A DNA stretch of 55,535 bases from Deltaproteobacteria bacterium (GTDB lineage Bacteria > Myxococcota_A > UBA9160 > SMWR01), in the NCBI GenBank assembly GCA_019313245.1, contig JAFDBP010000234.1:1-55535 (forward strand). Reading direction: 5' to 3'. Both the position numbers and the translations under genes were made by a program. Position 1 is the first letter of the stretch. Each line of letters opens with the position of its first letter. Under the pieces are notes generated by a model. That model did no database searches. It saw only the letters and a program-made list of their open reading frames with translations, and was not told the DNA's origin. Shown here piece by piece: positions 634 through 29,523 of this stretch.

Positions 634-645
634 GTTGGGCATGCT

Positions 646-1485: not shown

Positions 1486-1553
1486 GAGATCGGCTGTCGG
1501 GGATTCCTTGGAAAATTGATGCGAAGCAAGTGTATCTGATAATTGCGAAGCAG

Positions 1554-2672: not shown

Positions 2673-2874
2673 GATGGATTCTGGAGGTTCTGGAGCTTTT
2701 TATAGCGCGAGTTGCTCTGAACCGGACCAGAATTTTCGAGTTTCGCAAGGAAGACGAGGTGGCTGTGAGGCGTCGAAGGGTGGAAGAGATTTCAAATGTG
2801 CTCGCGCGAGTGGAGGCGGGTGGTCCAATCGCAGATCTGTGCTGAAAGTCGCATTTTGGGCGAGATGATCGGTT

Positions 2875-3897: not shown

Positions 3898-4131
3898 CGC
3901 CGCCAGTATAGCGCCGGGGCGGATCCCGCTGGCGTCGCAGAAACGGCTCCTAGCTCGCGATTCGATCGGCGGCTCTGGGCATGCGGGGTGAACGGATCCA
4001 CCCGATTACGTGGATCCGCCATAATCGCTACTTATTGGGCTTCGCAACTGGGCGGTGCGAACCGCCTGTCTCCGAGCGGCGCCACGAAAATCCGCTGGCG
4101 GCCGCCGAGTAGGGTTGAGACGACGGACGGT

Positions 4132-6030: not shown

Positions 6031-6168
6031 TGCGCGCAGAAGATCGTCCCATTGCCCGCGACAGCGAAACCAAAGCGGGTGATGCGGCTGAGCGATGAAA
6101 CCTCAGCGCGGAGAGGGAAGTGGGGCCGACTATAATGCGATCGGTGCATTCGCGAACCACGGATTGCG

Positions 6169-8933: not shown

Positions 8934-10435
8934 TTCCGAAGCGCCTCGAGCGCGGTTCTTCGCGCATTCGCCATGATCGTGAGTGTCGGCGAGATCACGG
9001 GGCTGGTCGGGAAGCAGCTCGAGTCGGCGATGTGTACGCCGGGCATGACCTCTCCGTCGCGCGCAACCGGAGTCGAGCCGGCGCCATAGGGGAAGGTGCC
9101 CGCCAGATGCGCACTCGTGTGGGCCACCACCGGAGCGAACGGCAACAGGAAGAACGCCGAACCGCGCAAGGCCTGGCGCAGGCTCGAAACGCAGCGGCTG
9201 ATCGCGGCTTTGTCGGGGCTGTTCTTTTCCGCAAACGCGATCCGATCGTTTTCCAGCGTGACGAAATACTGATGGGACGCCGCCGCATCCAGGTAGGCGC
9301 GCGCCCAGATCAGCCGATCCCTGAGCCAGCGGACCGGGTGCCGAACCAGCTTCCACGACCATGCGGGGGCGAGCGTGCGCCACAGATAATCCACGTTGGG
9401 ATAGAGCTGCACCTGCAGAAGTGAAGCGCGCGAACTCGTCGGCGCCATCAGCAGCAGCAGATTGGTCAGGCCGAAGTAGTCGCCGCGCCTTCGATCGGAG
9501 TGCCTGGACAGATTCAGGATCGGAAACTGCGCGATCGAGTTGTCCTGCAGCACGGGTCCCGCGCTCAGGTTCAGGCTTCGCATCAGGATCTCCGTCGTCG
9601 CGACACATCCCGAGGCGAGAAAGACCCGGTCGAAGCGCTCGGCGTGACCATCGACAGAGCATACCTCGGGGTTGCCCCGATCCATGCGAATCGATCGGAC
9701 ATCGCTCGGTACGAATCGGATTTCGCCCCGATCGATGGATCGCTTCAGCGCGTTCCTGGCGGAGTAGATCGAATCGCGCGCGCAGCCCACCATGCATTCC
9801 CCGCACTCGACGCAGCTCGTCGCCGCCCCGCTGCGGGTTTCGACGGCGCTCGGAGCGACGCCTGCGTAGATCCGATAGTCATCGGTCTCCGGGTGCGCGG
9901 CGAGATGGTCTTGCAGGCACCTGAAGCCCTCCAGTTGTTTCACGGCGGGCGCGTTGCTGTAGTCGAGTCCCAGGAATTCACTCACGCGATCCGGCTGTCC
10001 GGCGATCCCGATCGAATCCGCAATTGCGCGATAGTGGGGTTCGAGTTCCTCTCTCGAGATCGGCCATCCTGCAAAATCTTCTCGGGCCAGGGGCAATACC
10101 GTCCCACCCCAGATGTTCGTCTGGCCGCCGAACATCTCCGTTCGAAAGAAGCGCGCTTCACCATCCACCAGGTGGCAGGGCACGGGGTCGGCGAAGAACG
10201 TCTTGCGCGGCGGATAATTGACTGCAGTTCTCCGGATGTCCGCGTAGACAGCGTCGTAGAACTGCTCGATGCCTGCGGGTTCGTACCGACTTCTGGGCAG
10301 GGAGCTGAAATAGCGATCGCTGCTGAAGATCGTGATTTCGGCATCGACGCCCGACGCCTCGAGGCCGTTTGCGACACCGGCCGCCGACGCTCCGGATCCG
10401 ATGACGGCAATCTTGCGATCCGTCGGGGTCGTCAT
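8930..10435 (-). CDS. GMC-family FAD-dependent oxidoreductase
   Basis: ATG at 10435 gives MTTPTDRKIAVIGSGASAAG (GxGxxG FAD fold). The C-terminal HLAGTFPYG..VHIADSSCFPTSPVISPTLTIMANA resembles the GMC C-terminal domain. ATGA overlaps at both ends. Confidence 0.8.
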   Translation of the reverse strand: MTTPTDRKIAVIGSGASAAGVANGLEASGVDAEITIFSSDRYFSSLPRSRYEPAGIEQFYDAVYADIRRTAVNYPPRKTFFADPVPCHLVDGEARFFRTEMFGGQTNIWGGTVLPLAREDFAGWPISREELEPHYRAIADSIGIAGQPDRVSEFLGLDYSNAPAVKQLEGFRCLQDHLAAHPETDDYRIYAGVAPSAVETRSGAATSCVECGECMVGCARDSIYSARNALKRSIDRGEIRFVPSDVRSIRMDRGNPEVCSVDGHAERFDRVFLASGCVATTEILMRSLNLSAGPVLQDNSIAQFPILNLSRHSDRRRGDYFGLTNLLLLMAPTSSRASLLQVQLYPNVDYLWRTLAPAWSWKLVRHPVRWLRDRLIWARAYLDAAASHQYFVTLENDRIAFAEKNSPDKAAISRCVSSLRQALRGSAFFLLPFAPVVAHTSAHLAGTFPYGAGSTPVARDGEVMPGVHIADSSCFPTSPVISPTLTIMANARRTALEALRK

Positions 10436-10947
10436 CTCTTCACGAAATAGATGATGTTCAGACCGAACATGAAGCTTCGGGTGTCGACCACGCGCAGATC
10501 GGCAGCCGCCAGGCACGCGCACAGTTCCGCCTCATCGAAAGCGGGTCTCGGCGTGATGTCTCTCTCCCGGAATCGATGCCACAGCCGGGACACATTCTTG
10601 TTCAGGAAGGTGATGAGAAGCGTGCCGTCGCGTTTCAACGAGCGCCGCACTTCGCGCAACACGGATACCGGGTCGTCGAAGTAGTTCAGGGCGGCCAGGA
10701 TCGTCACGGTGTCGAACTCGTCATCGCGAAACGGCAGCTGGGTGAAGTCACGGCAGACGACGTCGACGTTCTGATATTCTACGATGTCCACGCCGACACC
10801 CGATCCGAATGCCCTGACGACGCGATTGTCACCGCAAGCCAGATCCATCAGCCGGCCCGAAACGTGCGGGAGAACGGCTCGCGTGCGCCACGCGCTCAGG
10901 GTCCGACCCACCACGTCGGATCGACGGTAGAGTTTTCGCGCCCCCAC
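10432..10947 (-). CDS. class I SAM-dependent methyltransferase
   Basis: GTG start at 10947. LMDLACGDN (motif I), DTVTILAALNYFDDP and LKRDGTLLITF indicate a Methyltransf_11-like enzyme. Confidence 0.8.
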   Translation of the reverse strand: MGARKLYRRSDVVGRTLSAWRTRAVLPHVSGRLMDLACGDNRVVRAFGSGVGVDIVEYQNVDVVCRDFTQLPFRDDEFDTVTILAALNYFDDPVSVLREVRRSLKRDGTLLITFLNKNVSRLWHRFRERDITPRPAFDEAELCACLAAADLRVVDTRSFMFGLNIIYFVKR

Positions 10948-11043
10948 GACAGATCAATAACACGGGAAGCGATGGAAATCCCCACAGCCGGATCGCGTCA
11001 GCTCGTCGAAGTCGAGGCGCCGCGGCGAGCCGCAGCGTCCGAG

Positions 11044-12372
11044 TCATCCGGTCGCAATCCTGGATCGCCCCATCAGCCAGAGCGCTGATCCCACCAGGGC
11101 CGCGCACAGCACCAGGAGGCCCGCCCTCGGCATCGTGGGGACGGCGTCGACCTGGCAACTCTCCCAATCCCCGCCGATCTGTTTGCTGTCGAGGAAGTTG
11201 CTGAGCGTGGAATTGCCCGTGTACAGGGCGTTGTTGCAGAAGTTGCTCCGGTTGTTGATCAAGGTGGTGAGGCTCAACATCTCGGCGGGAATGGGACCCG
11301 AAAGCGCGTTGTCGTTGAGGTAGGTGTAGAGCAGAGAATCCAGGTTCCCAATTTGTCGGGGGATCACACCCGACAACTGATTTCCGTTGAGGAGCAGTCG
11401 TTGGAGATTCGGCAGGTATCCCAACTCGGGCGGGATGCTGCCGGTCAACTGGTTGTCGTTCAGGTAGAGGAACTGGAGGGTGTCCAGATCTCCCAATTCC
11501 GGCGGGATGCTGCCGGTCAACTGATTGGCGTAGAGGAAGAGATCCTCGATGCTCAGCAGATTTCTCAACTCCGGAGGGATCGCGCCGGTCAACAGATTGC
11601 CGTTGAGGTAGAGCGTTCTGGCGCTGACGAGGTTTTCGAGCTCCGGCGGGATGGCGCCAGACAACTGGTTGTCGAACAGAAAGAGTGAATCGAGGGTGGA
11701 GAGGTACCCCAGTTCCAGCGGGATGCTGCCGGACAGGCTGTTGCCGTCGAGCCAGAGCACGACCAGGTTCGGGAAGCCTCCGAGCTCGGGAGGGATGCTG
11801 CCCGTCAATCCGTTGTTGTAGAGCGATAGATCGAGAAGCGTGGAGAGGGTGCCGAGTTCCGGCGGGATGCTGCCGGTCAGATCGTTGTCGTTGAGCCACA
11901 GATTTTCCAGGCTCGCCAGGTATTGCAGATCCGCCGGGATGCTCCCCGTCAGAAGGTTGTGTTCGAGCGAAAGATCGAGAAGGTTGGAGAGGTTGCCGAG
12001 TGCCGGCGGGATGCTGCCCGTCAACTGGTTGTTGTTCAGGTAAAGGTAGATGAGACCGCCGAGGTCTCCCAATGCCGCCGGGAGGCTTCCGGTCAGGTTG
12101 TTGTTCTCCAGTTCGAGCGCGTCGACCGTCGTCTCGCCGACATCGCACCACACGCCGTACCAGTTGCACTCTTCGCCGGGCAGGGCGAAACCATCTGCGG
12201 CGAGAGGAGGCGTTTGCCATCCGCTCTTGTTCGACCAGGTTTCTCCGTTGGTGTCGGTGTAGAGAGCGATCAGGGCCGCTCTCTCCGTCGCTGGAATGAT
12301 CGCGTGGGCTGTCGTGAGTCCGCCAGCCAACAGGTACGTCACGACGAGTACGAGGCCACCTCTCTTGATCAT
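11044..12372 (-). CDS. secreted/anchored leucine-rich repeat protein, plant-specific (24-residue) LRR class
   Basis: ATG at 12372 is preceded by GGAG. The track start at 12384 is a GTG. Signal peptide, then a cap ERAALIALY..W..CNWYGVWCD, then 12 repeats of LxLxxNxLTGSIPxELGxLxxLxx, then a C-terminal hydrophobic helix plus GRSR. Confidence 0.9.
   Translation of the reverse strand: MIKRGGLVLVVTYLLAGGLTTAHAIIPATERAALIALYTDTNGETWSNKSGWQTPPLAADGFALPGEECNWYGVWCDVGETTVDALELENNNLTGSLPAALGDLGGLIYLYLNNNQLTGSIPPALGNLSNLLDLSLEHNLLTGSIPADLQYLASLENLWLNDNDLTGSIPPELGTLSTLLDLSLYNNGLTGSIPPELGGFPNLVVLWLDGNSLSGSIPLELGYLSTLDSLFLFDNQLSGAIPPELENLVSARTLYLNGNLLTGAIPPELRNLLSIEDLFLYANQLTGSIPPELGDLDTLQFLYLNDNQLTGSIPPELGYLPNLQRLLLNGNQLSGVIPRQIGNLDSLLYTYLNDNALSGPIPAEMLSLTTLINNRSNFCNNALYTGNSTLSNFLDSKQIGGDWESCQVDAVPTMPRAGLLVLCAALVGSALWLMGRSRIATG
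11254..12117 (-). repeat. 12 tandem 72-nt coding repeats (the LRR array)
   Basis: Counted directly from the translation: residues 86-373 form 12 x 24 aa with no insertions or deletions. Confidence 0.9.
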
Positions 12373-12826
12373 TTCTGACTCCACTTCACTTTTCGACCGA
12401 ACAGACTGCCGCCTTCAGCTCCGGTAATATGCGTAGTGTTGGTTTTTGCCGATATCACATCTCCCGATACGTTCGAGTGTCCTCGACTTCGCTCGCACAA
12501 TCAAGATGGTGCGGCCGCACTGCCCCCGTGACCGAGGCATATTGTCTCATTGCGCGCGATAGATGGCGTTATGCCTCACGCGCTGCCGCTGAATTGCCGG
12601 ATGCCGTTTCGTTTGCGCCTGCGGGTTCGACCGCAAAGTGTCTGCGGTCGGATCCGGGCGACTCGCGGATCCCAAAATGACCTTCCAGTCAGCCTTCGCG
12701 ATCTCATTCGACATCTTCCCGAACGCGTGTTATCGATCGCTGCGAGAGTGCCAGTGGTTTCGTCATCTGCGATTTCGCATCTCGCGGACGGGGATGGCCG
12801 CCGGAATGGAGAGAGCGGAGGCCGAT

Positions 12827-13612
12827 ATGCGTGGGACGAATAGAGCGATTCTATGGATGCTTCTGGTCGCGACGGCGTTGCTATCGGGGGCTTGTTCTGA
12901 ATCGGAATCTCCCGAGGCGGAAGCTCCGGCTGTCGTTCCGGCGGTCGTCGAAGCCGCAGCAAACGCGGGACAACTCATCGCCGGTGAGATCGTCGAGACG
13001 ATGGATTCAGCGGGATACACCTACGTTCTCGTGGATACCGGAGATCGGCAGGTCTGGGCCGCGGGCCCCCAGACCGTCGTGAAGGTGGGTGAGAGCGTCA
13101 TCTTGACCAACGGAATGCCCATGAGGGACTTCCAGAGCCAGACGCTCGGCAGGACCTTCGACGTCGTCTATTTCGTCGGGAGCATCAAAGGCGATTCCGA
13201 TGCGGCTCCGGCAGCGGGAGGATCCGCCAACCTGCAGGCGGCTCCCGGACACGGCACGACTCCCGTGAAAGCAGCTCCGCAAATTGCGGTCGACCTGAGC
13301 GGCATCGAGAGGGCTTCGGGAGGCAAGACGATTGCCGAGCTGTTCGCCGAATCGGCAGAGCTGGCCGAGCGGGAGGTTTCGGTGAGGGGGCGGGTCGTAA
13401 AATTCAACGCCGGCATCATGGGCCGGAATTGGATGCACATTCGGGACGGATCCGGGGCCGAGGGCTCCAACGATCTGACGGTTACGACCGCGGACACCGC
13501 ACAGCTGGGCGACCTGGTCGTGATTCGGGGCACGTTGAGAACGAATCAGAACTTCGGTCACGGCTACTCGTACGATCTTCTGGTCGAGCAGGCCGCAGTC
13601 GACGTCGAGTAG
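12827..13612 (+). CDS. lipoprotein of unknown function, two OB-fold-like halves
   Basis: ATG at 12827 follows GGAGG. MRGTNRAILWMLLVATALLSGAC carries a lipobox. GEIVETMDSAGYTYVLVD and VSVRGRVVKFNAGIMGRNWMHIRDGSG blocks are present. Confidence 0.7.
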   Translation: MRGTNRAILWMLLVATALLSGACSESESPEAEAPAVVPAVVEAAANAGQLIAGEIVETMDSAGYTYVLVDTGDRQVWAAGPQTVVKVGESVILTNGMPMRDFQSQTLGRTFDVVYFVGSIKGDSDAAPAAGGSANLQAAPGHGTTPVKAAPQIAVDLSGIERASGGKTIAELFAESAELAEREVSVRGRVVKFNAGIMGRNWMHIRDGSGAEGSNDLTVTTADTAQLGDLVVIRGTLRTNQNFGHGYSYDLLVEQAAVDVE

Positions 13613-13641
13613 GTGATCGATTCGAAACCACTTCGGGCCCG

Positions 13642-15837
13642 ATGCCTTTCCCGGCGCCCGAGAGCCCTCGGTCGGCGAAGCGAATGACTCGCGCATTCTG
13701 GCAAGGCGTGCTCACGTCGCTGCTTGCGCTCGTTGTGTTCTTCGGCTTTCTCGAGGGAGTGCTGACACTCGCCGGCGTCGAGCCGGTGCTGCGAAGCGAG
13801 GATCCCTTCGTCGGCTTCGTCTCGGGCATTCCGCTCTTCGTCGAGCAGACCGACGCCGACGGCCGGCAGATCCTGACGATGCCCGAGAACAAGCTCACCT
13901 TCTTCAACCGCCAGAGTTTTCCGCGAGAGAAGGCGCCGGGCAGCTACCGCATCTTCTGTCTCGGGGGCTCGACGACCTACGGCCGCCCCTACAGCGACAC
14001 GACCTCGTTTGCCGGCTGGCTGCGCGAACTGCTGCCCGCGGCCGATCCCGATCGGCCCTGGGAGGTGATCAACGCGGGCGGCATCAGCTACGCGAGCTAC
14101 CGCGTGGCCCACCTGATGGAGGAACTGGTTCGCTACGAGCCGGATCTTTTCGTCATCTACACGGGCCACAACGAGTTCCTAGAAGAGCGAACCTACGGGG
14201 CGATGCGCGATCTTCCCGTCGCGGTTCGTTCGACCGCGGCGCTGCTCGCCCACACGCGAACCTGGGCAGCGTTGAAAATGCTGTTGAATTCCGTCGGCGC
14301 GTCGCCGAGCGCGGAAGCGGGCGGCAACGCCCGGTTGCCGGCCGAAGTCAACACGATGCTGGACCGTTCCGCGGGCCCCGAACGCTATGCGCGAGACGAC
14401 ACCCTGCGCGATCAGATCTTGCACCACTACCGGATCAGCCTCGAGCGAATGGTCGACATCGCCGAGCGCGCGGAGGCGGACGTCATCTTCGTCGTGCCGG
14501 CCTCGAACCTGAAGGACAGCGCGCCGTTCAAGAGCCAGCACACCGATGGTCTCGGCGAGGCGGATCGCCTGCGCTCGGAGGCGTTGCTCGCGGAGGCGCG
14601 GCGGCAAATCGAGAACGCGGCGTGGTCCGAGGCGCTCGAGGGGCTCGACGCGGCGCTCTCGCTCGACCCGCGCTTCGCGGGACTCCACTACCTACGCGGA
14701 AAGGTGTTGCTCGCGCTCGACAGACGCGATGAAGCGGCTGCGGCTTTTCGACGCGCTCGAGACGAGGACGTCTGTCCCCTCCGGGCACTGTCGCCGATGC
14801 GCGAGACGGTTGTCGAAGTGGCTCGCGCGAAGGGCGTGACGTGGGTCGACTTCGCGGATTTCGTCGAGCGGCGCGCACTCGCCGAGCGCGGATTGGCGAT
14901 CCCCGGCCGGGAGTATTTCCTGGACCACGTGCATCCGACGATCGAGGGCAACCGGCTGCTCGCAGTCGAGCTGGTCGAGGCGATGATCGCGCAGGGAATT
15001 GTGCGGCCCTCCAGCAGCTGGGGCGACGAGGCGATCGCCCGCGTCGTCTCGCGGGTCGAAGGGAGCATCGACCGCAAGACGCACGCGCAGGCGCTCGCGA
15101 ACCTCGCCCGGGTGCTCTCGTGGGCGGGCAAAGACGAGGATGCCCGGCGCCTCGCCAATCGGGCGGTCGAGCAGGTTCCAGAGATTGCGACGGCCAACGC
15201 CGACATTCTCGCGATTCTGTCCGAGCGCGAGGGCGACAAGGCCGAGACCTGGCGCCAGCTGCGGGCGGCGCTGCACGAAAACCCCGCCAACCCGCAGATC
15301 CACTTCCAGATCGGCCTCGAACTGCTCGACAAGAGCCAGCCGAATTGGAGCCTCGAGGCCGCGTCGGCGCACGTCCTGCTCGCCAGCGCATTCATGCCCG
15401 AAAACGACATGACGCATCAGATCCTGGGGCTCATCATGGCCGAGCGCGGGCGCTTCTCGATCGCCTACTCGAGCCTGCTGGAGGCGCTGCGCCTGAATCC
15501 GCGCAACGCCAAAGCGGAGTCGGCGCTCGCCCGCCTGCGCGAGATCCTGGGTTCGGAATTGCCGGACGCACCGCCGAAGGTGACACTGAAGCGTTACGCG
15601 TCGGGCGCTCCGGAACAGATCGTGCAGGTGAGAACGGATGCCGCCGGTGGCATCGTTCCCGACGGCATCGCGACGGACTGGTACGAAACCGGCGAGCCGC
15701 GCCGTCTGCTCGATTACGCCAACGGGGTGCCGCACGGCGCCGAGGTGACCTGGGATCCCAGCGGGCGCGTCCTCTCGCGAGCCGAGTATCGGCACGGCAC
15801 CCGGCTGCCGGCCGGCGAGCGGGACGGCGGCGGCTGA
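13642..15837 (+). CDS. membrane-anchored SGNH/GDSL-like hydrolase with TPR region and C-terminal MORN-variant repeats
   Basis: Start at 13642, or alternatively 13684. N-terminal TM helix. YRIFCLGGSTTYG (GDS-type block I) and YTGHNEF. TPR-like helices (LDAALSLDPRFAGLHYLRGKVLL). C-terminal DWYETGEPRRLLDYANGVPHGAEVTWDPSG. Confidence 0.75.
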   Translation: MPFPAPESPRSAKRMTRAFWQGVLTSLLALVVFFGFLEGVLTLAGVEPVLRSEDPFVGFVSGIPLFVEQTDADGRQILTMPENKLTFFNRQSFPREKAPGSYRIFCLGGSTTYGRPYSDTTSFAGWLRELLPAADPDRPWEVINAGGISYASYRVAHLMEELVRYEPDLFVIYTGHNEFLEERTYGAMRDLPVAVRSTAALLAHTRTWAALKMLLNSVGASPSAEAGGNARLPAEVNTMLDRSAGPERYARDDTLRDQILHHYRISLERMVDIAERAEADVIFVVPASNLKDSAPFKSQHTDGLGEADRLRSEALLAEARRQIENAAWSEALEGLDAALSLDPRFAGLHYLRGKVLLALDRRDEAAAAFRRARDEDVCPLRALSPMRETVVEVARAKGVTWVDFADFVERRALAERGLAIPGREYFLDHVHPTIEGNRLLAVELVEAMIAQGIVRPSSSWGDEAIARVVSRVEGSIDRKTHAQALANLARVLSWAGKDEDARRLANRAVEQVPEIATANADILAILSEREGDKAETWRQLRAALHENPANPQIHFQIGLELLDKSQPNWSLEAASAHVLLASAFMPENDMTHQILGLIMAERGRFSIAYSSLLEALRLNPRNAKAESALARLREILGSELPDAPPKVTLKRYASGAPEQIVQVRTDAAGGIVPDGIATDWYETGEPRRLLDYANGVPHGAEVTWDPSGRVLSRAEYRHGTRLPAGERDGGG

Positions 15838-16182: not shown

Positions 16183-17364
16183 ATGATGAGGGAACCCCGG
16201 ATAACTTCACTGCTGGCGCTCTGGATCGCGCTGCTCGTGAGCCCGGCGTTCGCCGGCACGACGGCTTCGTTCCAGTATCCGCTCGCCAGCTTTTCGGGAC
16301 CGGTGGAATCCCTCTGGGCCCGGCTCGCGGTCGACCCCGAGCGAAACGAGATCTACACGCTGCGCCAGCGCAACAACGACATCCGGATCTATGACGAGCA
16401 CGGCATGGAGATCTTCGTGTTCGGCGAAGGCGTCGGCAGTGCCACCGACATCACGGTCGGCAACGGCGGCGACCTCTTCCTGCTCACCAGGGGATATCAG
16501 ACCGCGACCGTTCAGTTGCTGAACTACCGCGGTGAGCACGTCGCCGACATTCCGCTCAAAAACGTCCCGAGGGATTTTGCGGGAATCGTGCCCGACCGCA
16601 TCCAACACCAAAACGGTCTGCTCTATCTGGTCGATTCGAATGAGATGAAGGTGATCGTGGTCGACGAAGCGGGCCGCTTCGAGAAGGGCTACGACCTGGG
16701 CCGCGCGATCAAGCCCTTCATCCCCCGCGAAAAGGCGAGGCGAGAGCTGTCTGCGACCGACTGGCGCGCGCTTCAGCTCAACAACATCGACCTCAACGGC
16801 TTCACCGTCGACGCGCAGGGGAATCTGTTCTTCACCGTCCCGGTCCTGTTCCGAGCCTTCAAGCTATCGACTCACGGCGAGTTGACGGATTTCGGCAAGG
16901 CCGGCAGCGGACTCGGGAAGTTCGGTGTCATCGCGGGCATTGCCACCGACGAGTTCGGTTACGTCTACGTATCGGATCGGTTGCGGAGCGTGATCCTGGT
17001 CTTCAATAGCGACCTGGTATTTCAAACGGAGTTCGGTTACCGCGGCAACCTCCCGTCGAATTTGATCGTGCCAGACGATCTGGCAATTGATGGTAATGGC
17101 AATCTCTATGTTGGTCAGGCTGCATACAGAGGAGTGAGTGTATTCAAGGTAGTGCACCGAGACACAAGTTTTTCACGAGTGATTGAAGCAACACCAATCA
17201 ATGAAGTTGAAACATCCGACCGGAATATCGAAGAAGTAGAAGTAAGTCATCCGGAGTTCGCCGTCGATCTCGGAAGCGATGAAGCGTCGACGGATTCCGG
17301 GGATTCCAGTCGGAATACTGAGGCAGTTGGATCGCCTAACAATGAGGAAGGACAAAATGAGTAA
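16183..17364 (+). CDS. secreted NHL-repeat six-bladed beta-propeller protein with acidic C-terminal tail
   Basis: Signal peptide MMREPRITSLLALWIALLVSPAFAG. Repeated NHL-like blades (..LYLVDSNEMKVIVVD.., ..GYVYVSDRLRSVILVFN.., ..GNLYVGQAAYRGVSVFKV). The last 60 aa are D/E/S rich. Confidence 0.85.
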   Translation: MMREPRITSLLALWIALLVSPAFAGTTASFQYPLASFSGPVESLWARLAVDPERNEIYTLRQRNNDIRIYDEHGMEIFVFGEGVGSATDITVGNGGDLFLLTRGYQTATVQLLNYRGEHVADIPLKNVPRDFAGIVPDRIQHQNGLLYLVDSNEMKVIVVDEAGRFEKGYDLGRAIKPFIPREKARRELSATDWRALQLNNIDLNGFTVDAQGNLFFTVPVLFRAFKLSTHGELTDFGKAGSGLGKFGVIAGIATDEFGYVYVSDRLRSVILVFNSDLVFQTEFGYRGNLPSNLIVPDDLAIDGNGNLYVGQAAYRGVSVFKVVHRDTSFSRVIEATPINEVETSDRNIEEVEVSHPEFAVDLGSDEASTDSGDSSRNTEAVGSPNNEEGQNE

Positions 17365-18556
17365 AATCAATTGGGTAATGGTGCCGGGAATTGCTGCGCT
17401 GGCCGCGATTCTGACTCTCGGTCTTGCCGGCCCGGCAATGGCTCTGCACGCTGGCGGTGTCGCACACTGCGACGCGTGTCACAGCATGCACAACTCTCCC
17501 GACAATCCGGTTTCGGGAACCCCCAACAGTCTGCTGCTGAAGGGAACGGACGCCAGCTCGACCTGCCTGAACTGCCATGAGGGCACGGGCAGCTATGACG
17601 TCTACAGCAGCAACGGAGCCAACTTCTCGCCGGGTGGTGACTTCTTCTGGCTGGATGCGAACTATTCGAACATCGTTCGAGGCAACGCAGTTCCCTCCGA
17701 TCCGGATCAGTTCGGTCACAACGTGATCGCGGTCGACTTCGGTCTGGCGATCGACGGCAACAACGCTTCGGCTCCGGGCGGAACCTATCCCTCCGGCCTG
17801 CTGAGCTGCGCCAGCTGCCACGACCCGCACGGTCAGGTGAACGGCGGTACGGCCAATGGCATGGATCCGATCTCGGTATCGGGCTCCTACGGCGGAACCC
17901 CCGCCCCCGGCACGATCGCGGGCAACTATCGCCTGCTGGGCGACAACGGCTACGGCCTCGCGCCGGCCCCGATCGCCGTGACCGCTGGCTTCGGCGAGCT
18001 GGACGGTTCGATCGTCACCACGCCTGCTGACCCCAACGACCCGAACAGCGTTGACGAGTACGCGGTCAGCCATCCCGCATACGGACAGGGCATGTCCGAG
18101 TGGTGCGCGTCCTGCCACGGGAATTACATCAACGACAACCACAAGCATCCGGCAGGCAACGGCGAGTTCCTGAACGGTCAAGCCACCAACTACAACCAGT
18201 ATGTAGCCACGGGTGACTTCACCGGTTCCAGCGCCGATTCGTACGATGCACTGGTTCCCTTCGAGCTTCAGGAGACCGACAAGGCCACGCTGTTGGCTAG
18301 GGTCACCTCGCTGGAAGGCCCGAACACCAACAGCAACGTCATGTGCTTGACCTGCCACCGAGCGCATGCGTCGGCGTTCACCAACATCACCCGATGGAAC
18401 GTCGAGGACGAGCTGCTCGAGGACGGCTATCCGTCTGATGCGAACATGGTGACCATCGGTGCGGTGGCCCACGCTGACTACTACGGCCGTGACATTGCAA
18501 CGGACTACGGCACGTATCAGCGCTCCCTCTGCAACAAGTGCCACGTGAAGGACTGA
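17357..18556 (+). CDS. omcS: OmcS-family hexaheme c-type cytochrome (putative nanowire subunit)
   Basis: ATG at 17357 follows AGGAAGG and overlaps the NHL gene by 8 nt. Signal peptide ends ..GPAMA. Six CxxCH motifs (CDACH, CLNCH, CASCH, CASCH, CLTCH, CNKCH). The blocks LHAGGVAHCDACHSMHNS, YGQGMSEWCASCHG, HPAGNG, CLTCHRAHAS and YQRSLCNKCHVKD match my recollection of G. sulfurreducens OmcS. Confidence 0.9.
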   Translation: MSKINWVMVPGIAALAAILTLGLAGPAMALHAGGVAHCDACHSMHNSPDNPVSGTPNSLLLKGTDASSTCLNCHEGTGSYDVYSSNGANFSPGGDFFWLDANYSNIVRGNAVPSDPDQFGHNVIAVDFGLAIDGNNASAPGGTYPSGLLSCASCHDPHGQVNGGTANGMDPISVSGSYGGTPAPGTIAGNYRLLGDNGYGLAPAPIAVTAGFGELDGSIVTTPADPNDPNSVDEYAVSHPAYGQGMSEWCASCHGNYINDNHKHPAGNGEFLNGQATNYNQYVATGDFTGSSADSYDALVPFELQETDKATLLARVTSLEGPNTNSNVMCLTCHRAHASAFTNITRWNVEDELLEDGYPSDANMVTIGAVAHADYYGRDIATDYGTYQRSLCNKCHVKD

Positions 18557-18610
18557 GGCTATTTGTTGAGAGTGGTATGAAACAGCCGATTGAATCGGCG
18601 TAAGGAGAAG

Positions 18611-18648
18611 GGCTGGTGGTACATTCGTACCGCCAGCCTTTTTTCGCT
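18611..18648 (+). terminator. Rho-independent terminator downstream of omcS
   Basis: GGCTGGTGGTAC-attc-GTACCGCCAGCC forms a 12-bp stem with one G-U pair, followed by TTTTTTcgcTTTT. Confidence 0.75.
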
Positions 18649-18777
18649 TTTCTCTTCCGAACAGTTGTCTCAGGGCCGAGAGCCATCCCCGAAAGTGCTA
18701 CCAATAGAAATGGGCGGACACACCCCGCCTTCCCGGCGAGTCTGGTCCGGGACGGCTTCTGGAGTGGGCTAGCGGCG

Positions 18778-20178
18778 ATGGGAAGGAGAACTCTCGGTAT
18801 CCTGGTCGCGCTCGTCGCGACGGCCTGCGTCCCGCTCCCCCCCGCCTACGAGTCCGTCTCGCGCACGGATGGGCTGCTGCGCATCTACCTCCAGCCGCTC
18901 CCCCAGGAAGCGCACCGGCTGCGTTTCAGCATTACGGAAATCCTGGCCCTGCGGGAAGACGGCGGCGCCGTCCGGCTGCGACAAAACTTCAGCGAACTGC
19001 ACGGGGAGGATCTGGTCGGGTTGCAGAGACTGCTGGTCTCGGCGGCGTTGCCACCGGGTTCTTACACGGGAATATCGCTGCAGTTGGGCGCGGCGTCGCT
19101 GCTCGGCGAGGCGGGGAGAACGGACCTGTTGGCGCCCGAGGAGCCGCTGTTGATCGAGCAGGATTTCCGGGTGGTCCGGCAGGTATCCAGCACCCTGTTC
19201 CTTTCGCTGGATCCGGAGGAGCTGGTCAGCAGCGGCTTCCGTTTCACACCTCTCTTCTATCTGGCGAAATCTCGACGCCAACTGGAGAGCCTGCTGGGCT
19301 TCGCGACGAATACGGGCGGCAACGTCGTTTCGGTCTTCAACAAGCACACGATGGAGATCGTCGAGACGATCGCGACGGGCAGTGGCCCAATGGGAGCCGC
19401 CCTCGATCAGCGCAGAAAGTGGGTCTACGTCGCCCTCGCTGGGGACGCCGAAATCGCGGCCATCGACGTGGGCACCACGCAGATCCTCCAACGGATCCGA
19501 TTGAACTTTGGCGACGAGCCCGTCGAAGTCGGCCTGTCGCCCGATGGCGAATTCCTCGTATCGGCCAACCGGGGTTCGAACACGGCGAGCATCATGGACA
19601 CCGGCTCCCTGCGCGAACTCGACCGGGTTCGCCTGCCGTCGGAGCCGGGTTCGGTCGTGATGAGCACCGTCGAGCCGCGGGCCTTCCTGCTCCAGCCGTT
19701 GGCCAACACGATTTCCATCGTCGACTTCGATCAACGACGTGTCGTCTTGAGCCAGACGCTGGAAGAGTCGCCCCTGCGCGGCGCCGTCAACGAGGACGGC
19801 ACCAGCCTGTTCGTCATTTCAGAGAACTCTCCAAATCTACTGGTCATCGACCCCCGGAATCTGCGGGTTACCGAGAGAATCTTCGTCGGTAGAGGCGCGA
19901 CATCCATCGAGCTAGATCCCAAAACTGGTTTGATTTATATTGGGATGAGAATGGGAGGCGTTGCTGTCGTCGATCCGTCGTTATTGATGCCAATCGACAC
20001 ATTCAGAGTAGATGGCAATGCGGTCGCCCTGGATATCGATGGCGACGAGAACAACCTGTTCGTGGTGTCATCGAATCAGCGAACGATCCGGAAGCTGGGT
20101 CTGGTCAGCCAAAAGCTCATAGGGACCATCGAGGTGGAAGAAGGATGCTATGCCGTCGTTCTGATGGGCGGACGGTAG
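18778..20178 (+). CDS. lipoprotein: DUF4382-like N-domain plus YVTN/YncE-type beta-propeller
   Basis: ATG at 18778. MGRRTLGILVALVATAC carries a lipobox. Repeated about 40-aa blades (GSGPMGAAL..WVYVALAGDAEIAAIDV, PVEVGLSPDGEFLVSANRGSNTASIMD, ..LFVISENSPNLLVIDP..). No CxxCH. Confidence 0.8.
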   Translation: MGRRTLGILVALVATACVPLPPAYESVSRTDGLLRIYLQPLPQEAHRLRFSITEILALREDGGAVRLRQNFSELHGEDLVGLQRLLVSAALPPGSYTGISLQLGAASLLGEAGRTDLLAPEEPLLIEQDFRVVRQVSSTLFLSLDPEELVSSGFRFTPLFYLAKSRRQLESLLGFATNTGGNVVSVFNKHTMEIVETIATGSGPMGAALDQRRKWVYVALAGDAEIAAIDVGTTQILQRIRLNFGDEPVEVGLSPDGEFLVSANRGSNTASIMDTGSLRELDRVRLPSEPGSVVMSTVEPRAFLLQPLANTISIVDFDQRRVVLSQTLEESPLRGAVNEDGTSLFVISENSPNLLVIDPRNLRVTERIFVGRGATSIELDPKTGLIYIGMRMGGVAVVDPSLLMPIDTFRVDGNAVALDIDGDENNLFVVSSNQRTIRKLGLVSQKLIGTIEVEEGCYAVVLMGGR

Positions 20179-20371
20179 ATCCCCTTGCGCCTGGGGGGCG
20201 AGGTTGACCAGATCGAACCGCCGATCGATCGCTAGGCGGTCCGCATCGCCAGATGTACGCCGTGAATGCCCCGGCAGAGGTCAAGTGCGGACGCGCAAAA
20301 GCCGACAAAGATGGCTGGGAATCTGCGCGTTTTTTCGCTCTCAGGCTCCGCAGGCTTTCGACTCCAGGTGG

Positions 20372-22525
20372 ATGATGCCCCAGCAGGCCGCTCGGTGGAT
20401 TCAATTGGCATCGCTGGCCGCGCTCGTGATCGCCTCCGCACCTGCGAGCGTGATGGCCGAAGGCGGCCAGATCAGCGTGAGGGCGGATCTGGAGTACCAG
20501 TACGCGGATACCGAGATAAAGGACGAAGCCAGCGGCGAAAAGACGGATACTGATTTTTCCCGCTTCAAGCACAAGTACGACGTGGAACTGCGACAAGAGC
20601 TTCTCCCATTCCTGGAAATCCGCAGCGGCGGCATCTTCGAATTCATCGACTTGTCGTCGAATGGCGAAGGCTTCGATGCGGACAGTCACGAGAGAACCCG
20701 ATGGCTATTCGGGGAACTCAACCTGAACAACCCGCTCTACACCGCCTCGACCGCGTATCGCCGGCGAAAGTTCGAATTCAATCGCGACGACACACCGAAG
20801 CTCGAGCGCGACCGCGAAGAAATCGCCGGTCTGCTGAAGTGGCGCCCGGTCGGATTCCCCGAGATCGATCTGGACGTCGATACGACCCGTATCTGGGACA
20901 AGGCGAATACGGTGGATCAGACGGTCGACCGCGTGTTGCTCAAGAGTCGGTATGACTACCGGGATGTCCACTTCGACTACACCTACACGAGACTCGACAC
21001 CGACAGAAAGATCGAGGATGCCGGGTCGCTGAACCAGGTGCACGACGCAGGCGTGTCGTACACCGATGAATTCTTCGAGGATCGGCTCCAGCTGACCAGC
21101 GCCGCCAGGTTGAATTACCAGATCCTCGAGCCCCGCGGAAACGAAGTCGTCGAGCGGCCCACGCCGCTACCCGATACCGTGTTCTACTTTGCGATCGACG
21201 GCGATCCCAACACGCTCGAATTGGTCCCCCCCGCCTCTCTCACGGACATCAACATCGGTCAAGGTGGCGGATTCAACACGGTTTCGGTCGGCTTGTACTT
21301 CGATCTCCCAACCGCGGCGGACAGAATCCATATTGGTCTGGATGCCGATGAGACCGTGGTCTTCGACGTAGCGGAAGACTTCGTATGGACGGTGTCCTGG
21401 ACCGACGACACGGACCTGGAACTGGCGATCTGGAATACGTTCCCGGCCAACAGCGTGAAAGCGAAATACGACCCCATCGAAAATCGCTTCGAGATCTCGT
21501 TTCCCCGCGTCGAGAATGCGATCGCCATCAAGGTCGCCACCGATCCTCAACCCACCGCGACCGGCCCGATCCTGATCAGTCGCATCCAGGCTTTCACGAC
21601 GGTCGCCGTGAGCCCGGGAGAGGACCTCGAAGACATCGACCACCACTACTCGCTGGGGCTTCGCTGGGCGTTCTCGGACCGGACGGATGCCTCATACCAG
21701 GGTTATTTCAGGCATCAGAAATTCGAACCGTTCGACACCACCAAGAAGACGTTTACCAACGGCCTCAGCTTGCGGCACCAATTTCACCCGAAACTCGTCG
21801 GGAACGCGAAAGTCCTGCGGACGGACACGGATGAGACGGCTCGGGACGATCTGACGAATCACTCCTACAGCGCGTCCCTGAGAGCGGACTATTTCGACAC
21901 CCTGCGCCAGACGCTGACCTACAGCGGTTTTCACGACGATCTGGGCGGCCGCACCAGTTACTCGAACGCGATTCTCCTGCGCACCAATGCCGATCTATAC
22001 GAGGGCTGGAGCGCCATCATGGATTTGAGCTATTCCGCCAAGCACCTCACGGAGGGCGACGACCTCAACGACGCGACCGTCAGGCTCACCACGAATGTAG
22101 ACCCGCATCCGAAACTCAAATTCGTGTTCGATTACCGACTCTCGCACGTCGACCAGACGGGCCGGTCTTCGTGGCTCGACCACCGCGCCCGATTCCAGGG
22201 TTTCTGGGTCCCGTTGAGAACGCTGAGTTTCTTTGCCTCGGTCAGGCTGAGGGATAACGGATTCGACGACGAGGGCCTGCTGGTGTCTCAAAACTACTCC
22301 GTCAGCTGGTCGCCCTTTCCCGACGGCTTGCTTCGGTTCTCCGTCGGCTACAATCGGTCCGTGGACACGAGGGACAATACCGTCAGCGCCCTATCGCCGA
22401 GGATCGATTGGCAGGTCACGCGTACCACGCTCTTTACGCTTCTTTCCAATCTGGGAACGACCGAAACGGATCGAGAGACCATAGACGTGAAGAACGTTCG
22501 CTTGACGCTGAGAACATTCTTCTAG
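20372..22525 (+). CDS. large outer-membrane beta-barrel protein (717 aa)
   Basis: ATG at 20372. Signal peptide ..APASVMA. Long run of alternating hydrophobic/polar strands rich in Y/D/R/T. Terminal ..RLTLRTFF with a C-terminal Phe, a BAM-type signature. Confidence 0.8.
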   Translation: MMPQQAARWIQLASLAALVIASAPASVMAEGGQISVRADLEYQYADTEIKDEASGEKTDTDFSRFKHKYDVELRQELLPFLEIRSGGIFEFIDLSSNGEGFDADSHERTRWLFGELNLNNPLYTASTAYRRRKFEFNRDDTPKLERDREEIAGLLKWRPVGFPEIDLDVDTTRIWDKANTVDQTVDRVLLKSRYDYRDVHFDYTYTRLDTDRKIEDAGSLNQVHDAGVSYTDEFFEDRLQLTSAARLNYQILEPRGNEVVERPTPLPDTVFYFAIDGDPNTLELVPPASLTDINIGQGGGFNTVSVGLYFDLPTAADRIHIGLDADETVVFDVAEDFVWTVSWTDDTDLELAIWNTFPANSVKAKYDPIENRFEISFPRVENAIAIKVATDPQPTATGPILISRIQAFTTVAVSPGEDLEDIDHHYSLGLRWAFSDRTDASYQGYFRHQKFEPFDTTKKTFTNGLSLRHQFHPKLVGNAKVLRTDTDETARDDLTNHSYSASLRADYFDTLRQTLTYSGFHDDLGGRTSYSNAILLRTNADLYEGWSAIMDLSYSAKHLTEGDDLNDATVRLTTNVDPHPKLKFVFDYRLSHVDQTGRSSWLDHRARFQGFWVPLRTLSFFASVRLRDNGFDDEGLLVSQNYSVSWSPFPDGLLRFSVGYNRSVDTRDNTVSALSPRIDWQVTRTTLFTLLSNLGTTETDRETIDVKNVRLTLRTFF

Positions 22526-22551
22526 TTGGACCGCTTCGGAAGGGAGGTTTC

Positions 22552-23127
22552 GTGACGGCAAAACAGCGCCCCCTCAACAGGATCCTGATGACGCTCGCCC
22601 TCATCCCCCTCGTGAGCTGCGTGTCCGATGACGTCTTTACCGAGCCGAACATGGATTTCGGGTCGTTGCGGGCCGTTGCGGTCCTGCCGTTCAACAACTT
22701 CACGGCGGAAGAATTCGCGTCCGCGCGCGTCAGGGATGCCTTCTCCACCATGTTGCTCGCGACGGGGGCACTCTACGTCATTCCGCCCGGCGAGGTGGCC
22801 CGGGCGATGGGGGCGATCGGCCGAATCCCGCGCGAAGGGCCTTCCAGCGAGCAGATCAAACAGCTCGCAGACGCGCTCGATGCCGATGCCATCATCACCG
22901 GTGTGGTGTTGGAGTACGGGCCCGTTCGGTCCGGTTCGGCGTCTGCGAATGTGGTTTCGGTCAGTCTTCAGATGATCGAGAAGGCCAGCGGTATGGTGGT
23001 GTGGTCGGCATCTTCCACAAGGGGCGGAATCACGGTCTGGGATCGCCTTTTCGGCGGAGGCGGGGAGCCGATGAACGCGGTCACCGAAAAGGTGGTCAAT
23101 GATCTCCTGGACAAGCTCTTCGATTAG
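22552..23127 (+). CDS. lipoprotein with one LpoB/TolB-N/PelC-like domain
   Basis: GTG at 22552 follows GGGAGG. MTAKQRPLNRILMTLALIPLVSC carries a lipobox. AVAVLPFNNFT .. IITGVVLEYG .. SLQMIEKASGMVVWS. Confidence 0.75.
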   Translation: MTAKQRPLNRILMTLALIPLVSCVSDDVFTEPNMDFGSLRAVAVLPFNNFTAEEFASARVRDAFSTMLLATGALYVIPPGEVARAMGAIGRIPREGPSSEQIKQLADALDADAIITGVVLEYGPVRSGSASANVVSVSLQMIEKASGMVVWSASSTRGGITVWDRLFGGGGEPMNAVTEKVVNDLLDKLFD

Positions 23128-24322
23128 CATCCGGCCGGTCTGGGGGCTGCTCGCGCTACTGGCCCTGTTGTCGCTCTCGAGCTGCGCCTCGCGGCCGGAG
23201 CCGTCCGACGGGCCTCCCGAGCCTCAATTGCCGCCGCCGGCCGGGCAAGCCGTGAACTACGGCGACCTCATCGCGGTACTTCCGATCAGCAACCTCACCG
23301 GCACGTCCGCGCCACTCCGGGCGGTCGAGAAGGTGTTGCGCGCGCAGCTGGCTCGCTGGGGTTTCCGAATCGTCGATGCCGACAGCCTCGCGAAGGTCAT
23401 GGATCGATACAGGATTCGCGATACGGGCGGCCTGAGTCCCGGGGTATTTCGGGCGCTCAGGGAGGAGACGGGAGCAGTCGGCGTTCTGATGACGTCGCTG
23501 GAGGTCTTCTACGAAGATCGATTTCCGAGGATCTCGTTGATGTCGAGGCTGGTTGCGGGTGGAGATCCTCCGGAAATCGCCTGGATGAGCGGAGTCGGGC
23601 TGGCCGGCGACGGCGATGTCGGGCTCCTCGCACTCGGGCGGGTCGGAGATCCCGACGCATTGATGGAAATCGCCGTACGCTGTCTCGTCGACTCGCTGGC
23701 GGGATCACTTACCGAAACTCAGGCGCTAGGCTCTTCCGCTTCCCATAACCGAATGAGTGAATGCGACTCGCGCGGTGAAGTCGTGTATTCTTCACCGGAG
23801 GCGAACGGCAAGAGGAGGTTTCGTCCGCGCAAACCCTTGGGATCTCCGATCACCGATGTCAACAGGCGGTACAGCGTCGCGGTCATTCCCTTCTTGAACC
23901 TGAGCCAGCGAAGAAATGCCGGCAGGATCCTGGAGCTTCACTTCGTCAATCAGTTGCTCCGGAACGAATCCCTTTCAGTCGTCGATCCCGGGCTCGTCAG
24001 GCAGGAGTTGCTCGCGAACAGGGTCGTCATGGCAGCGGGCCCATCGTTGGAAAATGCGAGGGTTCTATCCAGTGACGAATCTCTGGGAGCCGACCTGATC
24101 TTTTCGGGGGTCGTATTCGACTATCAGGACGGGTACGGCATACCGAAAGTCGACTTTTCCCTGACCGTGATCGAAAAGGAGAGCCACAAGGTGGTTTGGT
24201 CTTCGCGGAGCTACAGCACGGGAACCGAAGGGGTTCTCTTCTTCGATCTGGGCAGGGTGTATACGGCGCATCAACTGGCAGCTGAAATGGCCAGAGGAGC
24301 AACCGAAGCGCTGAGCCGGTGA
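23099..24322 (+). CDS. lipoprotein with two tandem LpoB/TolB-N/PelC-like domains
   Basis: ATG at 23099 overlaps the upstream gene by 29 nt. Lipobox LSLSSC. Domain 1 has LIAVLPISNLTG. Domain 2 has SVAVIPFLNLSQ .. LIFSGVVFDYQ .. LTVIEKESHKVVWS, parallel to the preceding gene. Confidence 0.75.
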   Translation: MISWTSSSISIRPVWGLLALLALLSLSSCASRPEPSDGPPEPQLPPPAGQAVNYGDLIAVLPISNLTGTSAPLRAVEKVLRAQLARWGFRIVDADSLAKVMDRYRIRDTGGLSPGVFRALREETGAVGVLMTSLEVFYEDRFPRISLMSRLVAGGDPPEIAWMSGVGLAGDGDVGLLALGRVGDPDALMEIAVRCLVDSLAGSLTETQALGSSASHNRMSECDSRGEVVYSSPEANGKRRFRPRKPLGSPITDVNRRYSVAVIPFLNLSQRRNAGRILELHFVNQLLRNESLSVVDPGLVRQELLANRVVMAAGPSLENARVLSSDESLGADLIFSGVVFDYQDGYGIPKVDFSLTVIEKESHKVVWSSRSYSTGTEGVLFFDLGRVYTAHQLAAEMARGATEALSR

Positions 24323-24407: not shown

Positions 24408-26186
24408 ATGCAGAAGAACAAGCTAGCTCGGCTCATCCCCGCACTACTCATCCTCGCGGTACCTAGCTTTGCAACCGTCGAAGATGGCGAGCCGACCGGG
24501 GAAGGAGATGCCGCCGGCGTCGAACGGGCAGAAGAGGTGCTGATCACGCTGGAGGTTCCACTGGGATCGCCGCTGTTTACGGACATGCCGGTGGCGGTGG
24601 TAGACGAAGAGCCGATCACTTTTCGCGATCTCACGCGGCGGATCGCGTCGATCCACGAGGATATGGACGAAGGCGCGAAGCCGTCCAGAAAAAACTTCGC
24701 GAAGCTGCTGGATCGAGTCATTACGACGCAACTGGTCGTTCACGAAGCGCGAAACATCGGGCTCGACGAGCTGCCCGAAGTCGTCATTAGCATCGAAAAT
24801 GCGTCGACGGATCTCTTGATCTCGAGGCTGATGTCGCTGAAACTCGATGAAGTGGAGCCGGATCCGGACGAGGTGGACGCCCTCTACGAGGAGATGTCGC
24901 GTGAATTTTTGATGTCGACGGTGAAGCTCCCGAAGGAAGAGGATGCGTTGGCCTTTGAGGAACTGATCGGTTCCGGCGAGAACTTCGACGAAGTCGCAAC
25001 CCAATTCGCCGAAGAGGGCCGGGCGGAATTCGATGCGAGCGACAAGACCTTCATCAAACTGAAGGATCTGCTGCCGAGGATGGCCCAGACGGCCATCGAC
25101 ATGGAGGAGGGTTCCGTCAGCGAAATATTCTCCGATCGCGACGGCTTCCTCCTCTTCCACGTCGGAGCCGTGCGCGGCTATGACGATCCCGAGCTGCGGG
25201 AAGAGGCGCGGCAGAAGGTGCTGGAGCCCGCACAGAAGAAAGCCGCGCGCGAGTACGGGGAATATCTGAGGAACAAGTACGCCACGGTCGATGAGCGACT
25301 GCTGGAGAAGGTCGATTTCGAAGTGAAGAAGACCGGCTTCCTGTCACTCGGCAAGGAAGAGCCGGTCGATTTCGCCGAACTCGAAAAGGACGAGCGCGTG
25401 GTTGCGACGACGCAAACCGATCCGCCGCTCACCGTGACGATCGGAGAGTTGGCGACCGCGGTGCGGGAATCGTATCACCACGGGATCGAGACGTCGTCCG
25501 TAAGGAGCAAGAAGCTCAACGCCAAGAAGCAGATCCTGCTGAAGAATATGTTGTTCAAGGAGGCGGCTTTGGCCGAAGCTCGAAACCTGGGACTCGACCA
25601 GACGAGCTCCTACCTCGACACGATGGACGAGTACACCACTTCGCTGCTCTTCGAGGTGTTCGTCAAGAAGGTGATCGTGCCCGATGTGGCGATTACCGAC
25701 GCCGATGTGCGCGAATACTTCGAGGGGCACCTGGACGAGTTTTCGACTCCCGCGATGTTCAGGCTGAACGCGATCGCCTTCGGCGAACGGGAAGGCGCCG
25801 AGCGCGCTCTGGGCAAGCTCGAGAAGCGAGCCGATTTCAAGTGGGTTTCCGCCAATTCGCCGGGCAGGATCGACGTCGTGAGCGGCGAATCCTTCGATTT
25901 CGACGGGAAACTGTTGGCCGTGACGGCCCTGCCCGAAGACCTGCACGAGAGCATCGAAGACTCCAAGCAGGGAGACGCCGTGATCTACTCCGACGGCAAG
26001 GGTTACCACCATGTGATTGTGGTCAGCAAGGTCTTTCCCTCGGAAACGCGGCCGTACGAGGACGTCAAGGGCTCGGTTGCTCGAATCATCTTCGAGCAGA
26101 AGCTCAAGGCATTGGTCGAAGACTGGAGCGGAAAGTTGGCAGAGGCATACGAAACGCGGATATTCATCACGGGGCTGGATGATTGA
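24408..26186 (+). CDS. periplasmic SurA/PpiD-like chaperone with parvulin-type PPIase domain
   Basis: Signal peptide MQKNKLARLIPALLILAVPSFA. Long helical SurA-N-like region. A C-terminal rotamase-like block (ADVREYFEGHLDEFSTPAMFRLNAIAF .. GYHHVIVVSKV). Confidence 0.75.
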   Translation: MQKNKLARLIPALLILAVPSFATVEDGEPTGEGDAAGVERAEEVLITLEVPLGSPLFTDMPVAVVDEEPITFRDLTRRIASIHEDMDEGAKPSRKNFAKLLDRVITTQLVVHEARNIGLDELPEVVISIENASTDLLISRLMSLKLDEVEPDPDEVDALYEEMSREFLMSTVKLPKEEDALAFEELIGSGENFDEVATQFAEEGRAEFDASDKTFIKLKDLLPRMAQTAIDMEEGSVSEIFSDRDGFLLFHVGAVRGYDDPELREEARQKVLEPAQKKAAREYGEYLRNKYATVDERLLEKVDFEVKKTGFLSLGKEEPVDFAELEKDERVVATTQTDPPLTVTIGELATAVRESYHHGIETSSVRSKKLNAKKQILLKNMLFKEAALAEARNLGLDQTSSYLDTMDEYTTSLLFEVFVKKVIVPDVAITDADVREYFEGHLDEFSTPAMFRLNAIAFGEREGAERALGKLEKRADFKWVSANSPGRIDVVSGESFDFDGKLLAVTALPEDLHESIEDSKQGDAVIYSDGKGYHHVIVVSKVFPSETRPYEDVKGSVARIIFEQKLKALVEDWSGKLAEAYETRIFITGLDD

Positions 26187-29519: not shown

Positions 29520-29523
29520 CAGA

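Follow-up and report, generated by a model that had tools for sequence, protein, structure and literature searches.

Does the gene at positions 17357-18556 (+) of contig JAFDBP010000234.1 (Deltaproteobacteria bacterium, GenBank assembly GCA_019313245.1) encode the structural subunit of a cytochrome nanowire like that made of OmcS in Geobacter sulfurreducens, or a relative of OmcS that does not polymerise? The question arises from a preliminary description of this stretch of 55,535 nucleotides (nt), referred to here as the window, in which the gene product was presented as an OmcS homolog with all six heme sites and with the histidine, His16 of the mature chain, that would bind a heme of the adjoining subunit. 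We found that the window protein is a clear relative of Geobacter OmcS and belongs to the OmcS family of hexaheme c-type cytochromes. On the strength of homology, ligand conservation, predicted fold and gene context, we believe that it is probably the structural subunit of an OmcS-type nanowire, which would polymerise by placing its His16 on heme 5 of the neighbouring molecule.

Relationship to OmcS and the heme ligands

When the window protein was compared by phmmer with all PDB sequences, OmcS (6EF8/6NEF) was its sole match (E = 1.1e-65), and the alignment ran end to end, pairing residues 31-399 of the precursor with residues 2-407 of OmcS. The OmcS chain of 407 amino acids (aa) was reconstructed from this alignment for residue-level comparison, and 163 identities were counted in 361 aligned columns (45%). 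The homology to OmcS is thus borne out over the full length, and the blocks that the preliminary description listed as co-linear, namely YGQGMSEWCASCHG, HPAGNG, CLTCHRAHAS and the C-terminal YQRSLCNKCHVKD, are all present and aligned to the matching OmcS blocks. Conservation was highest in the N-terminal arm (12/20 residues), in the heme 5 block (13/20) and, at the C-terminus, in the heme 6 block (8/10). As had also been anticipated, the mature chain is shorter than that of Geobacter OmcS and differs in its loops (370 versus 407 aa), with 45 loop residues found only in OmcS and 8 only in the window protein. The pairwise alignment to G. sulfurreducens OmcS, named beforehand as a check, showed that His16 of the window protein and that of OmcS occupy homologous positions.

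The open reading frame (ORF) starts at ATG 17357, with GAGGAAGGA just before it, and its product, a precursor of 399 aa, carries six CXXCH motifs. The first 29 residues (17357-17443, MSKINWVMVPGIAALAAILTLGLAGPAMA) read as a Sec signal peptide with predicted cleavage after A-M-A, which would leave a mature chain of 370 aa that begins with LHAGGVAHCDACHSMHNS. This cleavage at ..GPAMA agrees with the preliminary description and is supported by the translation and by the AXA site, since the homologues keep Ala at -1 and -3 as well as the [F/L]-His opening of the mature chain; the codon count likewise places mature His16 at 17489-17491. The nearest relatives were P0001 (93% identity) and P0002 (GCA_975972805, 80%), followed by proteins of the metagenome-assembled genome (MAG) "Deltaproteobacteria bacterium Ww264" (78%) and of a "Myxococcales" MAG (65%), and an exact-sequence look-up in the public collection searched gave no match on record for the window protein itself. 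No OmcS-specific model was matched in NCBIfam or Pfam, only the generic Paired_CXXCH_1 / TIGR01905 domain; with no OmcS-family model in the annotation libraries, such genes are therefore labelled "hypothetical" or "cytochrome c".

The statement that all six heme sites are kept was confirmed, as every CXXCH of the window protein pairs with a motif of OmcS. These are CDACH for heme 1 (17468-17482, mature C9-H13), CLNCH for heme 2 (17564-17578), CASCH for heme 3 (17807-17821), CASCH for heme 4 (18104-18118), CLTCH for heme 5 (18344-18358, mature C301-H305, equivalent to C328-H332 of OmcS and the expected acceptor of the next subunit's His16) and CNKCH for heme 6 (18530-18544), all on the forward strand, and their histidines H13, H45, H126, H225, H305 and H367 align to H13, H51, H144, H243, H332 and H404 of OmcS. 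Outside the motifs, alignment and family conservation single out His2 (17447-17449), His16 (the inferred trans ligand for the neighbour's heme 5, a role taken from the OmcS structure), H92 (17717-17719), H129 (17828-17830), H235 (18146-18148) and H308 (18365-18367), also on the forward strand, which correspond to OmcS H2, H16, H110, H147, H257 and H335, respectively. The remaining histidines, H53, H63, H139, H247 and H309 in OmcS and H8, H210, H233 and H343 in the window protein, are not conserved between the two. The two proteins therefore share exactly 12 histidines for six hemes.

In OmcS, all 12 axial ligands are histidines, 11 of them in cis and one, on heme 5, contributed by a neighbouring molecule (PMC6584659). 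The preliminary description had named His16 as the residue that ligates the neighbour's heme 5. The part concerning one neighbour histidine on heme 5 stands (PMC6584659); a literature search for His16 named as the trans ligand found no such statement. The description had also held that a trans histidine is what turns a cytochrome into a wire, and this is too strong as a general rule, since OmcZ polymerises without inter-subunit ligation.

The predicted fold of the window protein is the OmcS fold. The AlphaFold2 model, built with an alignment of 150 sequences (alignment A1), had a mean pLDDT of 88.3 and a pTM of 0.87, with low confidence in a variable loop (191-205) and, more mildly, in the first ten residues. 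A Foldseek search with this model returned 6ef8_A as the only significant PDB match (E = 4.3e-32, TM 0.83 normalised to the query).

Conservation of His16 and the case for polymerisation

The family is large: an exhaustive search of 1.84 billion representatives gave 530 clusters at E <= 1e-3, of which 158 reached E <= 1e-30. We examined the histidine columns in 244 relatives, taken from two lists of top-120 matches plus the Geobacter paralogues. Truncated sequences apart, the 12 ligand columns were invariant save for one substitution each in the His13 and H92 columns, and the His16 column held histidine in 240 of the 240 relatives with a residue there, the gaps coming from truncated sequences only. 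The extra, non-ligand histidine columns varied among the same relatives. H16 was also one of the 32 strictly invariant columns of alignment A1, in which the six distal histidines were all strictly invariant except H2, itself nearly so. Among the 149 best representatives, 106 had the N-terminal H.GG...C..CH motif and 103 of these carried histidine at +3. His16 was absent, however, from about 8 of some 117 family representatives with intact N-termini, P0272, P0287 and P0335 among them. These alignments indicate that His16 is under strong selection and yet not universal, and its presence in the window protein is therefore informative.

The scheme that we infer from these comparisons comprises the export route, trans ligation, polymerisation and stoichiometry. 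The precursor would be exported by Sec and cleaved after ..PAMA, and six c-type hemes would be loaded, each with bis-histidine ligation. The subunit itself would supply 11 of the 12 axial histidines. His16 lies three residues, that is, one helical turn, past the heme 1 ligand His13 and some four hemes away from heme 5 of its own chain, which would put that heme out of its reach, so that it would ligate heme 5 (CLTCH) of the neighbouring subunit and complete its coordination there. Such trans ligation would drive the subunits to polymerise head to tail, giving a filament in which the hemes form an unbroken chain. Folding would fall to the prolyl isomerase (PPIase) chaperone of the omcS-companion (osc)-like machinery encoded downstream, secretion to its OscEFG-like channel components and the shaping of the filament to the OscD-like propeller, while the 26-heme and 16-heme cytochromes of the same cluster are likely periplasmic electron feeders. 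A terminator placed after the cytochrome gene may allow the cell to make far more of the subunit than of this machinery.

Several points weigh against polymerisation. That His16 is the neighbour-derived ligand of heme 5 in OmcS, paired there with His332, is a finding reportedly made by Wang et al. in 2019 (Cell 177:361). A net 37 OmcS loop residues are absent from the window protein, and some of these could form part of the subunit interface. By BLASTP, the window protein is equidistant from Geobacter OmcS, OmcT and OscC (38-39% identity), and OmcT and OscC also keep His16, although among these paralogues only OmcS is known as a wire former (PMC12977616). In the literature that we consulted, we found no description of a filament from the short-form clade to which the window protein belongs. 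His16 alone is not sufficient evidence that the chain polymerises.

The alternative that survives best, although we consider it unlikely, is that the gene encodes a soluble or surface-bound OmcS-family hexaheme carrier that stays monomeric, with heme 5 either five-coordinate or ligated by another residue or by a partner protein. The retention of His16 by OmcT and OscC speaks for it, as do the relatives that lack His16. One of these, P0335 (L024, 4381-5694; 40-42% identical to OmcS and OmcT), is encoded directly after a beta-propeller gene, the same position as that of the window gene, and inter-subunit ligation is therefore not obligatory in the family. The four extra histidines of the window protein (mature H8, H210, H233 and H343) also speak for it, but extra histidines vary across the family, whereas exactly 12 histidines, His16 included, are kept for the six hemes. 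A monomeric carrier also fits less well with the genetic surroundings of the window gene described below.

Two further ideas about these histidines were dropped. The first was that relatives without His16 are confined to loci outside osc contexts; the sole locus retrieved (L024, 6 kb) has an upstream beta-propeller gene, and no separation by context is therefore claimed. The second concerned mature His8 (17465-17467) and His210 (18071-18073), which are kept in the clade of the window protein (101/111 and 103/120, respectively), the OmcS-side clade having mostly Glu and Arg at these positions. Co-variation of the two as a pair (E-R in OmcS versus H-H here) was not retained, since the two were not cleanly coupled and the alignment is poor in this region. 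The relatives without His16 are natural test cases for the need of trans ligation.

The osc-like cluster and the paralogue question

By gene content and order, the cytochrome gene sits in a complete osc-like cluster. The assignments that follow are of three grades: by sequence match for the OscD- and OscE-like genes, by shared Pfam families for the OscF-like gene, and by position and domain content for those likened to OscG-OscK. Immediately upstream, a gene for a secreted beta-propeller (NHL/SBBP-like, Pfam SBBP; 16183-17364, +) overlaps the start of the cytochrome gene by 8 nt, the cytochrome ATG overlapping its TAA stop (17362-17364). Its product shares 34% identity with the 315-aa protein encoded directly 5' of omcS in Geobacter; with the corresponding proteins of the MAG loci, identity is 42-72%. 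The propeller thus looks like a conserved partner of the cytochrome gene across related loci; we found no description of its role.

Downstream, and on the same strand, the cluster continues with a gene for an OscD-like YncE-type beta-propeller (18778-20178; 39% identity to Geobacter OscD, E = 1e-93; Pfam YNCE) and one for an OscE-like large protein with no Pfam domain (20204-22525; 24% identity over 678 aa to Geobacter OscE, E = 1e-43), the true start of which is probably inside the ORF and which is syntenic in 14 MAG loci (L007-L016, L018, L019) and three Geobacter loci. An OscF-like lipoprotein of the LpoB/GNA1162 type (22528-23127) has Pfam families in common with the Geobacter gene at the same position (49% identity by tblastn), and a protein of 407 aa (23099-24322) is OscG-like by position only, a position kept in 11 MAG loci (L007-L016, L018), with a low-coverage match in L009. 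Then come an OscH-like PpiC/SurA-type prolyl isomerase chaperone (24408-26186; Pfam Rotamase_2, SurA_N), an OscI-like cytochrome of 662 aa with 26 CXXCH motifs (26243-28231), identified by position and domain content, an OscJ-like cytochrome with 16 such motifs in the position after the 26-heme gene (28236-29519) and an NHL-repeat beta-propeller (29449-30426; Pfam NHL) that closes the cluster and is OscK-like by position. The gene order recurs in at least 12 MAG loci (L007-L018) labelled Desulfobulbaceae, Desulfuromonas, Desulfurivibrio or "Deltaproteobacteria". In the Geobacter locus, which was retrieved through the OmcS protein cluster, the order is the 315-aa protein, OmcS, OmcT, OscB (spermine-synthase-like), OscC, OscD (YncE-type propeller), OscE and OscF (LpoB/GNA1162-like). 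According to PMC13194489 and PMC12977616, which cite Shen et al. 2025 (Cell Chem Biol), the osc cluster is presented as a widespread assembly machinery, with OscH acting in folding, OscE, OscF and OscG in secretion and OscD in filament morphology; OscI is GSU2495, a 26-heme protein of ~70 kDa (PMC13194489; PMC12977616).

Some further features accompany the cluster. Near the N-terminus of OscD, Geobacter has a CSGCH heme motif; no CXXCH was found in the OscD-like protein of the window or in 14 of the 14 non-Geobacter ones examined (L005-L019). The cluster is flanked by genes for a sigma-54-dependent response regulator and a histidine kinase (30448-33680, -); a single CXXCH motif in the kinase makes it a possible heme-based sensor, and a histidine kinase and a sigma-54 regulator are also encoded upstream of omcS in Geobacter. 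On the other side, upstream of the cluster (37-12384 and 13429-15837), the window carries genes for polysaccharides and glycosylation (UDP-GlcNAc 2-epimerase, GT2, pyruvyl transferase, DegT aminotransferase), for a leucine-rich repeat (LRR) protein and for a GDSL-lipase/TPR protein, the last of which is syntenic in L004 and L005. In Geobacter, GT2 and PMT_2/TPR genes are likewise found upstream of omcS.

A strong hairpin resembling an intrinsic terminator, with a GC-rich stem of 19 bp and a T-run, lies 48 nt after the cytochrome stop codon (18604-18655, +), and the first hexaheme gene of L004-L007, L010, L013, L015 and L018 has an equivalent hairpin and T-run behind it. The hairpin shows that the GTG at 18616 is an over-extended start for the next ORF, which therefore probably begins at ATG 18778, downstream of the terminator. 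Its placement would suit a structural subunit of high abundance encoded ahead of machinery of lower abundance. The bulk expression that this implies argues against a monomeric carrier. So does the setting, a complete complement of assembly and secretion genes with no hexaheme next to it other than the window protein, whose gene is also the only OmcS-like one in the window.

The position of the gene raises a second alternative, since it fills two slots of the Geobacter order at once, that of omcS, following the propeller gene, and that of oscC, preceding oscD. The window protein could be the counterpart of the accessory protein OscC (GSU2501), with a part in assembly, for instance that of a primer or cap in the periplasm. 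The gene is immediately 5' of the OscD-like gene, as oscC is in Geobacter; BLASTP identity is 38.9% to OscC and 39.0% to OmcS; and every Geobacter genome with the eight-gene block has a GSU2501-type gene (PMC12977616). In the MAG loci, a second, divergent hexaheme with an OscC-like C-terminus and His16 retained is encoded between the first hexaheme and OscD in L007-L012, L014-L016 and L018 (~11200-12900), and a single hexaheme is found in the window, L006, L009 and L013. In a neighbour-joining tree with 100 bootstraps, however, the window protein grouped with the first-position hexahemes of the two-hexaheme loci (bootstrap 100) and not with the OscD-adjacent second copies, which form a separate clade. 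The C-termini point the same way: first copies end QRSLCNKCHxxD, like OmcS and OmcT, and the window protein ends YQRSLCNKCHVKD, whereas second copies and OscC end ..C(E/T)KCH...P. Moreover, the gene just ahead of the window cytochrome is a counterpart of the propeller gene that lies before omcS in Geobacter. In view of the tree and the C-terminal signature, we regard the identification with OscC as very improbable. Geobacter OmcS, OmcT and OscC clustered together in the tree and are equally distant from the window protein, which is therefore no more than a possible one-to-one orthologue of OmcS. Finally, a pseudogene or a chance ORF was rejected on account of the intact reading frame, the E-value of 1e-65 and a family of 530 clusters at 50% identity.

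Comparison with known systems and meaning for the OmcS family

With G. sulfurreducens OmcS (GSU2504; PDB 6EF8/6NEF), the window protein has in common the fold, the six CXXCH motifs in the same order, the 12 histidine ligands, His16 among them, a signal peptide of the same design with histidine at mature position 2, and an N-terminal arm, a heme 5 block and a C-terminus that are nearly identical; the two genes also have similar neighbours, a beta-propeller gene upstream and OscD-, OscE- and OscF-like genes downstream. It differs in having Leu1 for Phe1 and His8 for Glu8, in its 45% identity and shorter chain, in a cluster without OmcT, OscB and OscC genes, and in its host, an uncultured high-GC lineage recorded as Deltaproteobacteria or Myxococcales among MAGs. 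Set against the osc cluster (GSU2504-GSU2493) as the citing papers describe it, the window repeats the succession of hexaheme, OscD-like propeller, OscE-like protein, LpoB-like lipoprotein, further conserved protein, PPIase chaperone, 26-heme cytochrome, second multiheme cytochrome and NHL protein. In contrast to that cluster, it has one hexaheme in place of OmcS, OmcT and OscC, has no spermine-synthase-like OscB, and encodes an OscD-like protein without the CSGCH heme motif of Geobacter OscD. OmcT and OscC are themselves hexahemes with His2 and His16 and 38-39% identity to the window protein, but they are not known as filament formers, OscC has a different C-terminus, and no second copy accompanies the window protein in its cluster.

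Outside Geobacter, DA_402 of Desulfurivibrio alkaliphilus is, by its description, a comparable OmcS-like extracellular multiheme cytochrome, placed in a sister clade of OmcS and predicted by AlphaFold to polymerise (Nature 2025, PMC12545173). Unlike the window protein, it has a seventh motif, and its TM to OmcS is 0.56 (PMC12545173), as against 0.83 for the window protein, which is thus structurally closer to OmcS. The tetraheme nanowire of OmcE resembles the proposed one in that its interface heme is ligated by a histidine of the adjacent subunit, but it has four hemes and neither sequence nor fold similarity to the window protein.

OmcS homologues have been reported as widespread (PMC10954620), as has the osc machinery, and the locus is therefore a new example of a known system that leaves current understanding unchanged. 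Its contribution is one more OmcS-type nanowire locus, compact and well supported, in a lineage without cultured members. The combination of His16, the other 11 histidine ligands and the terminator after the gene makes a usable signature for candidate wire subunits, and the features of the locus could guide annotation and engineering. In most non-Geobacter osc-like clusters, the subunit is shorter than OmcS, and in the lineage of the window one hexaheme seems to be enough. We suggest, tentatively and with slightly more doubt than conviction, that the window holds a minimal OmcS-nanowire system, made of one short-form subunit of 370 aa translationally coupled to the propeller, with an OscD-like protein devoid of a heme motif and no OmcT, OscB or OscC. 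If this is true and filaments form, the set of genes in the window would define the minimal genes and the minimal subunit for OmcS-type wires, and the short-form clade, not the long form of Geobacter, would be the common environmental type.

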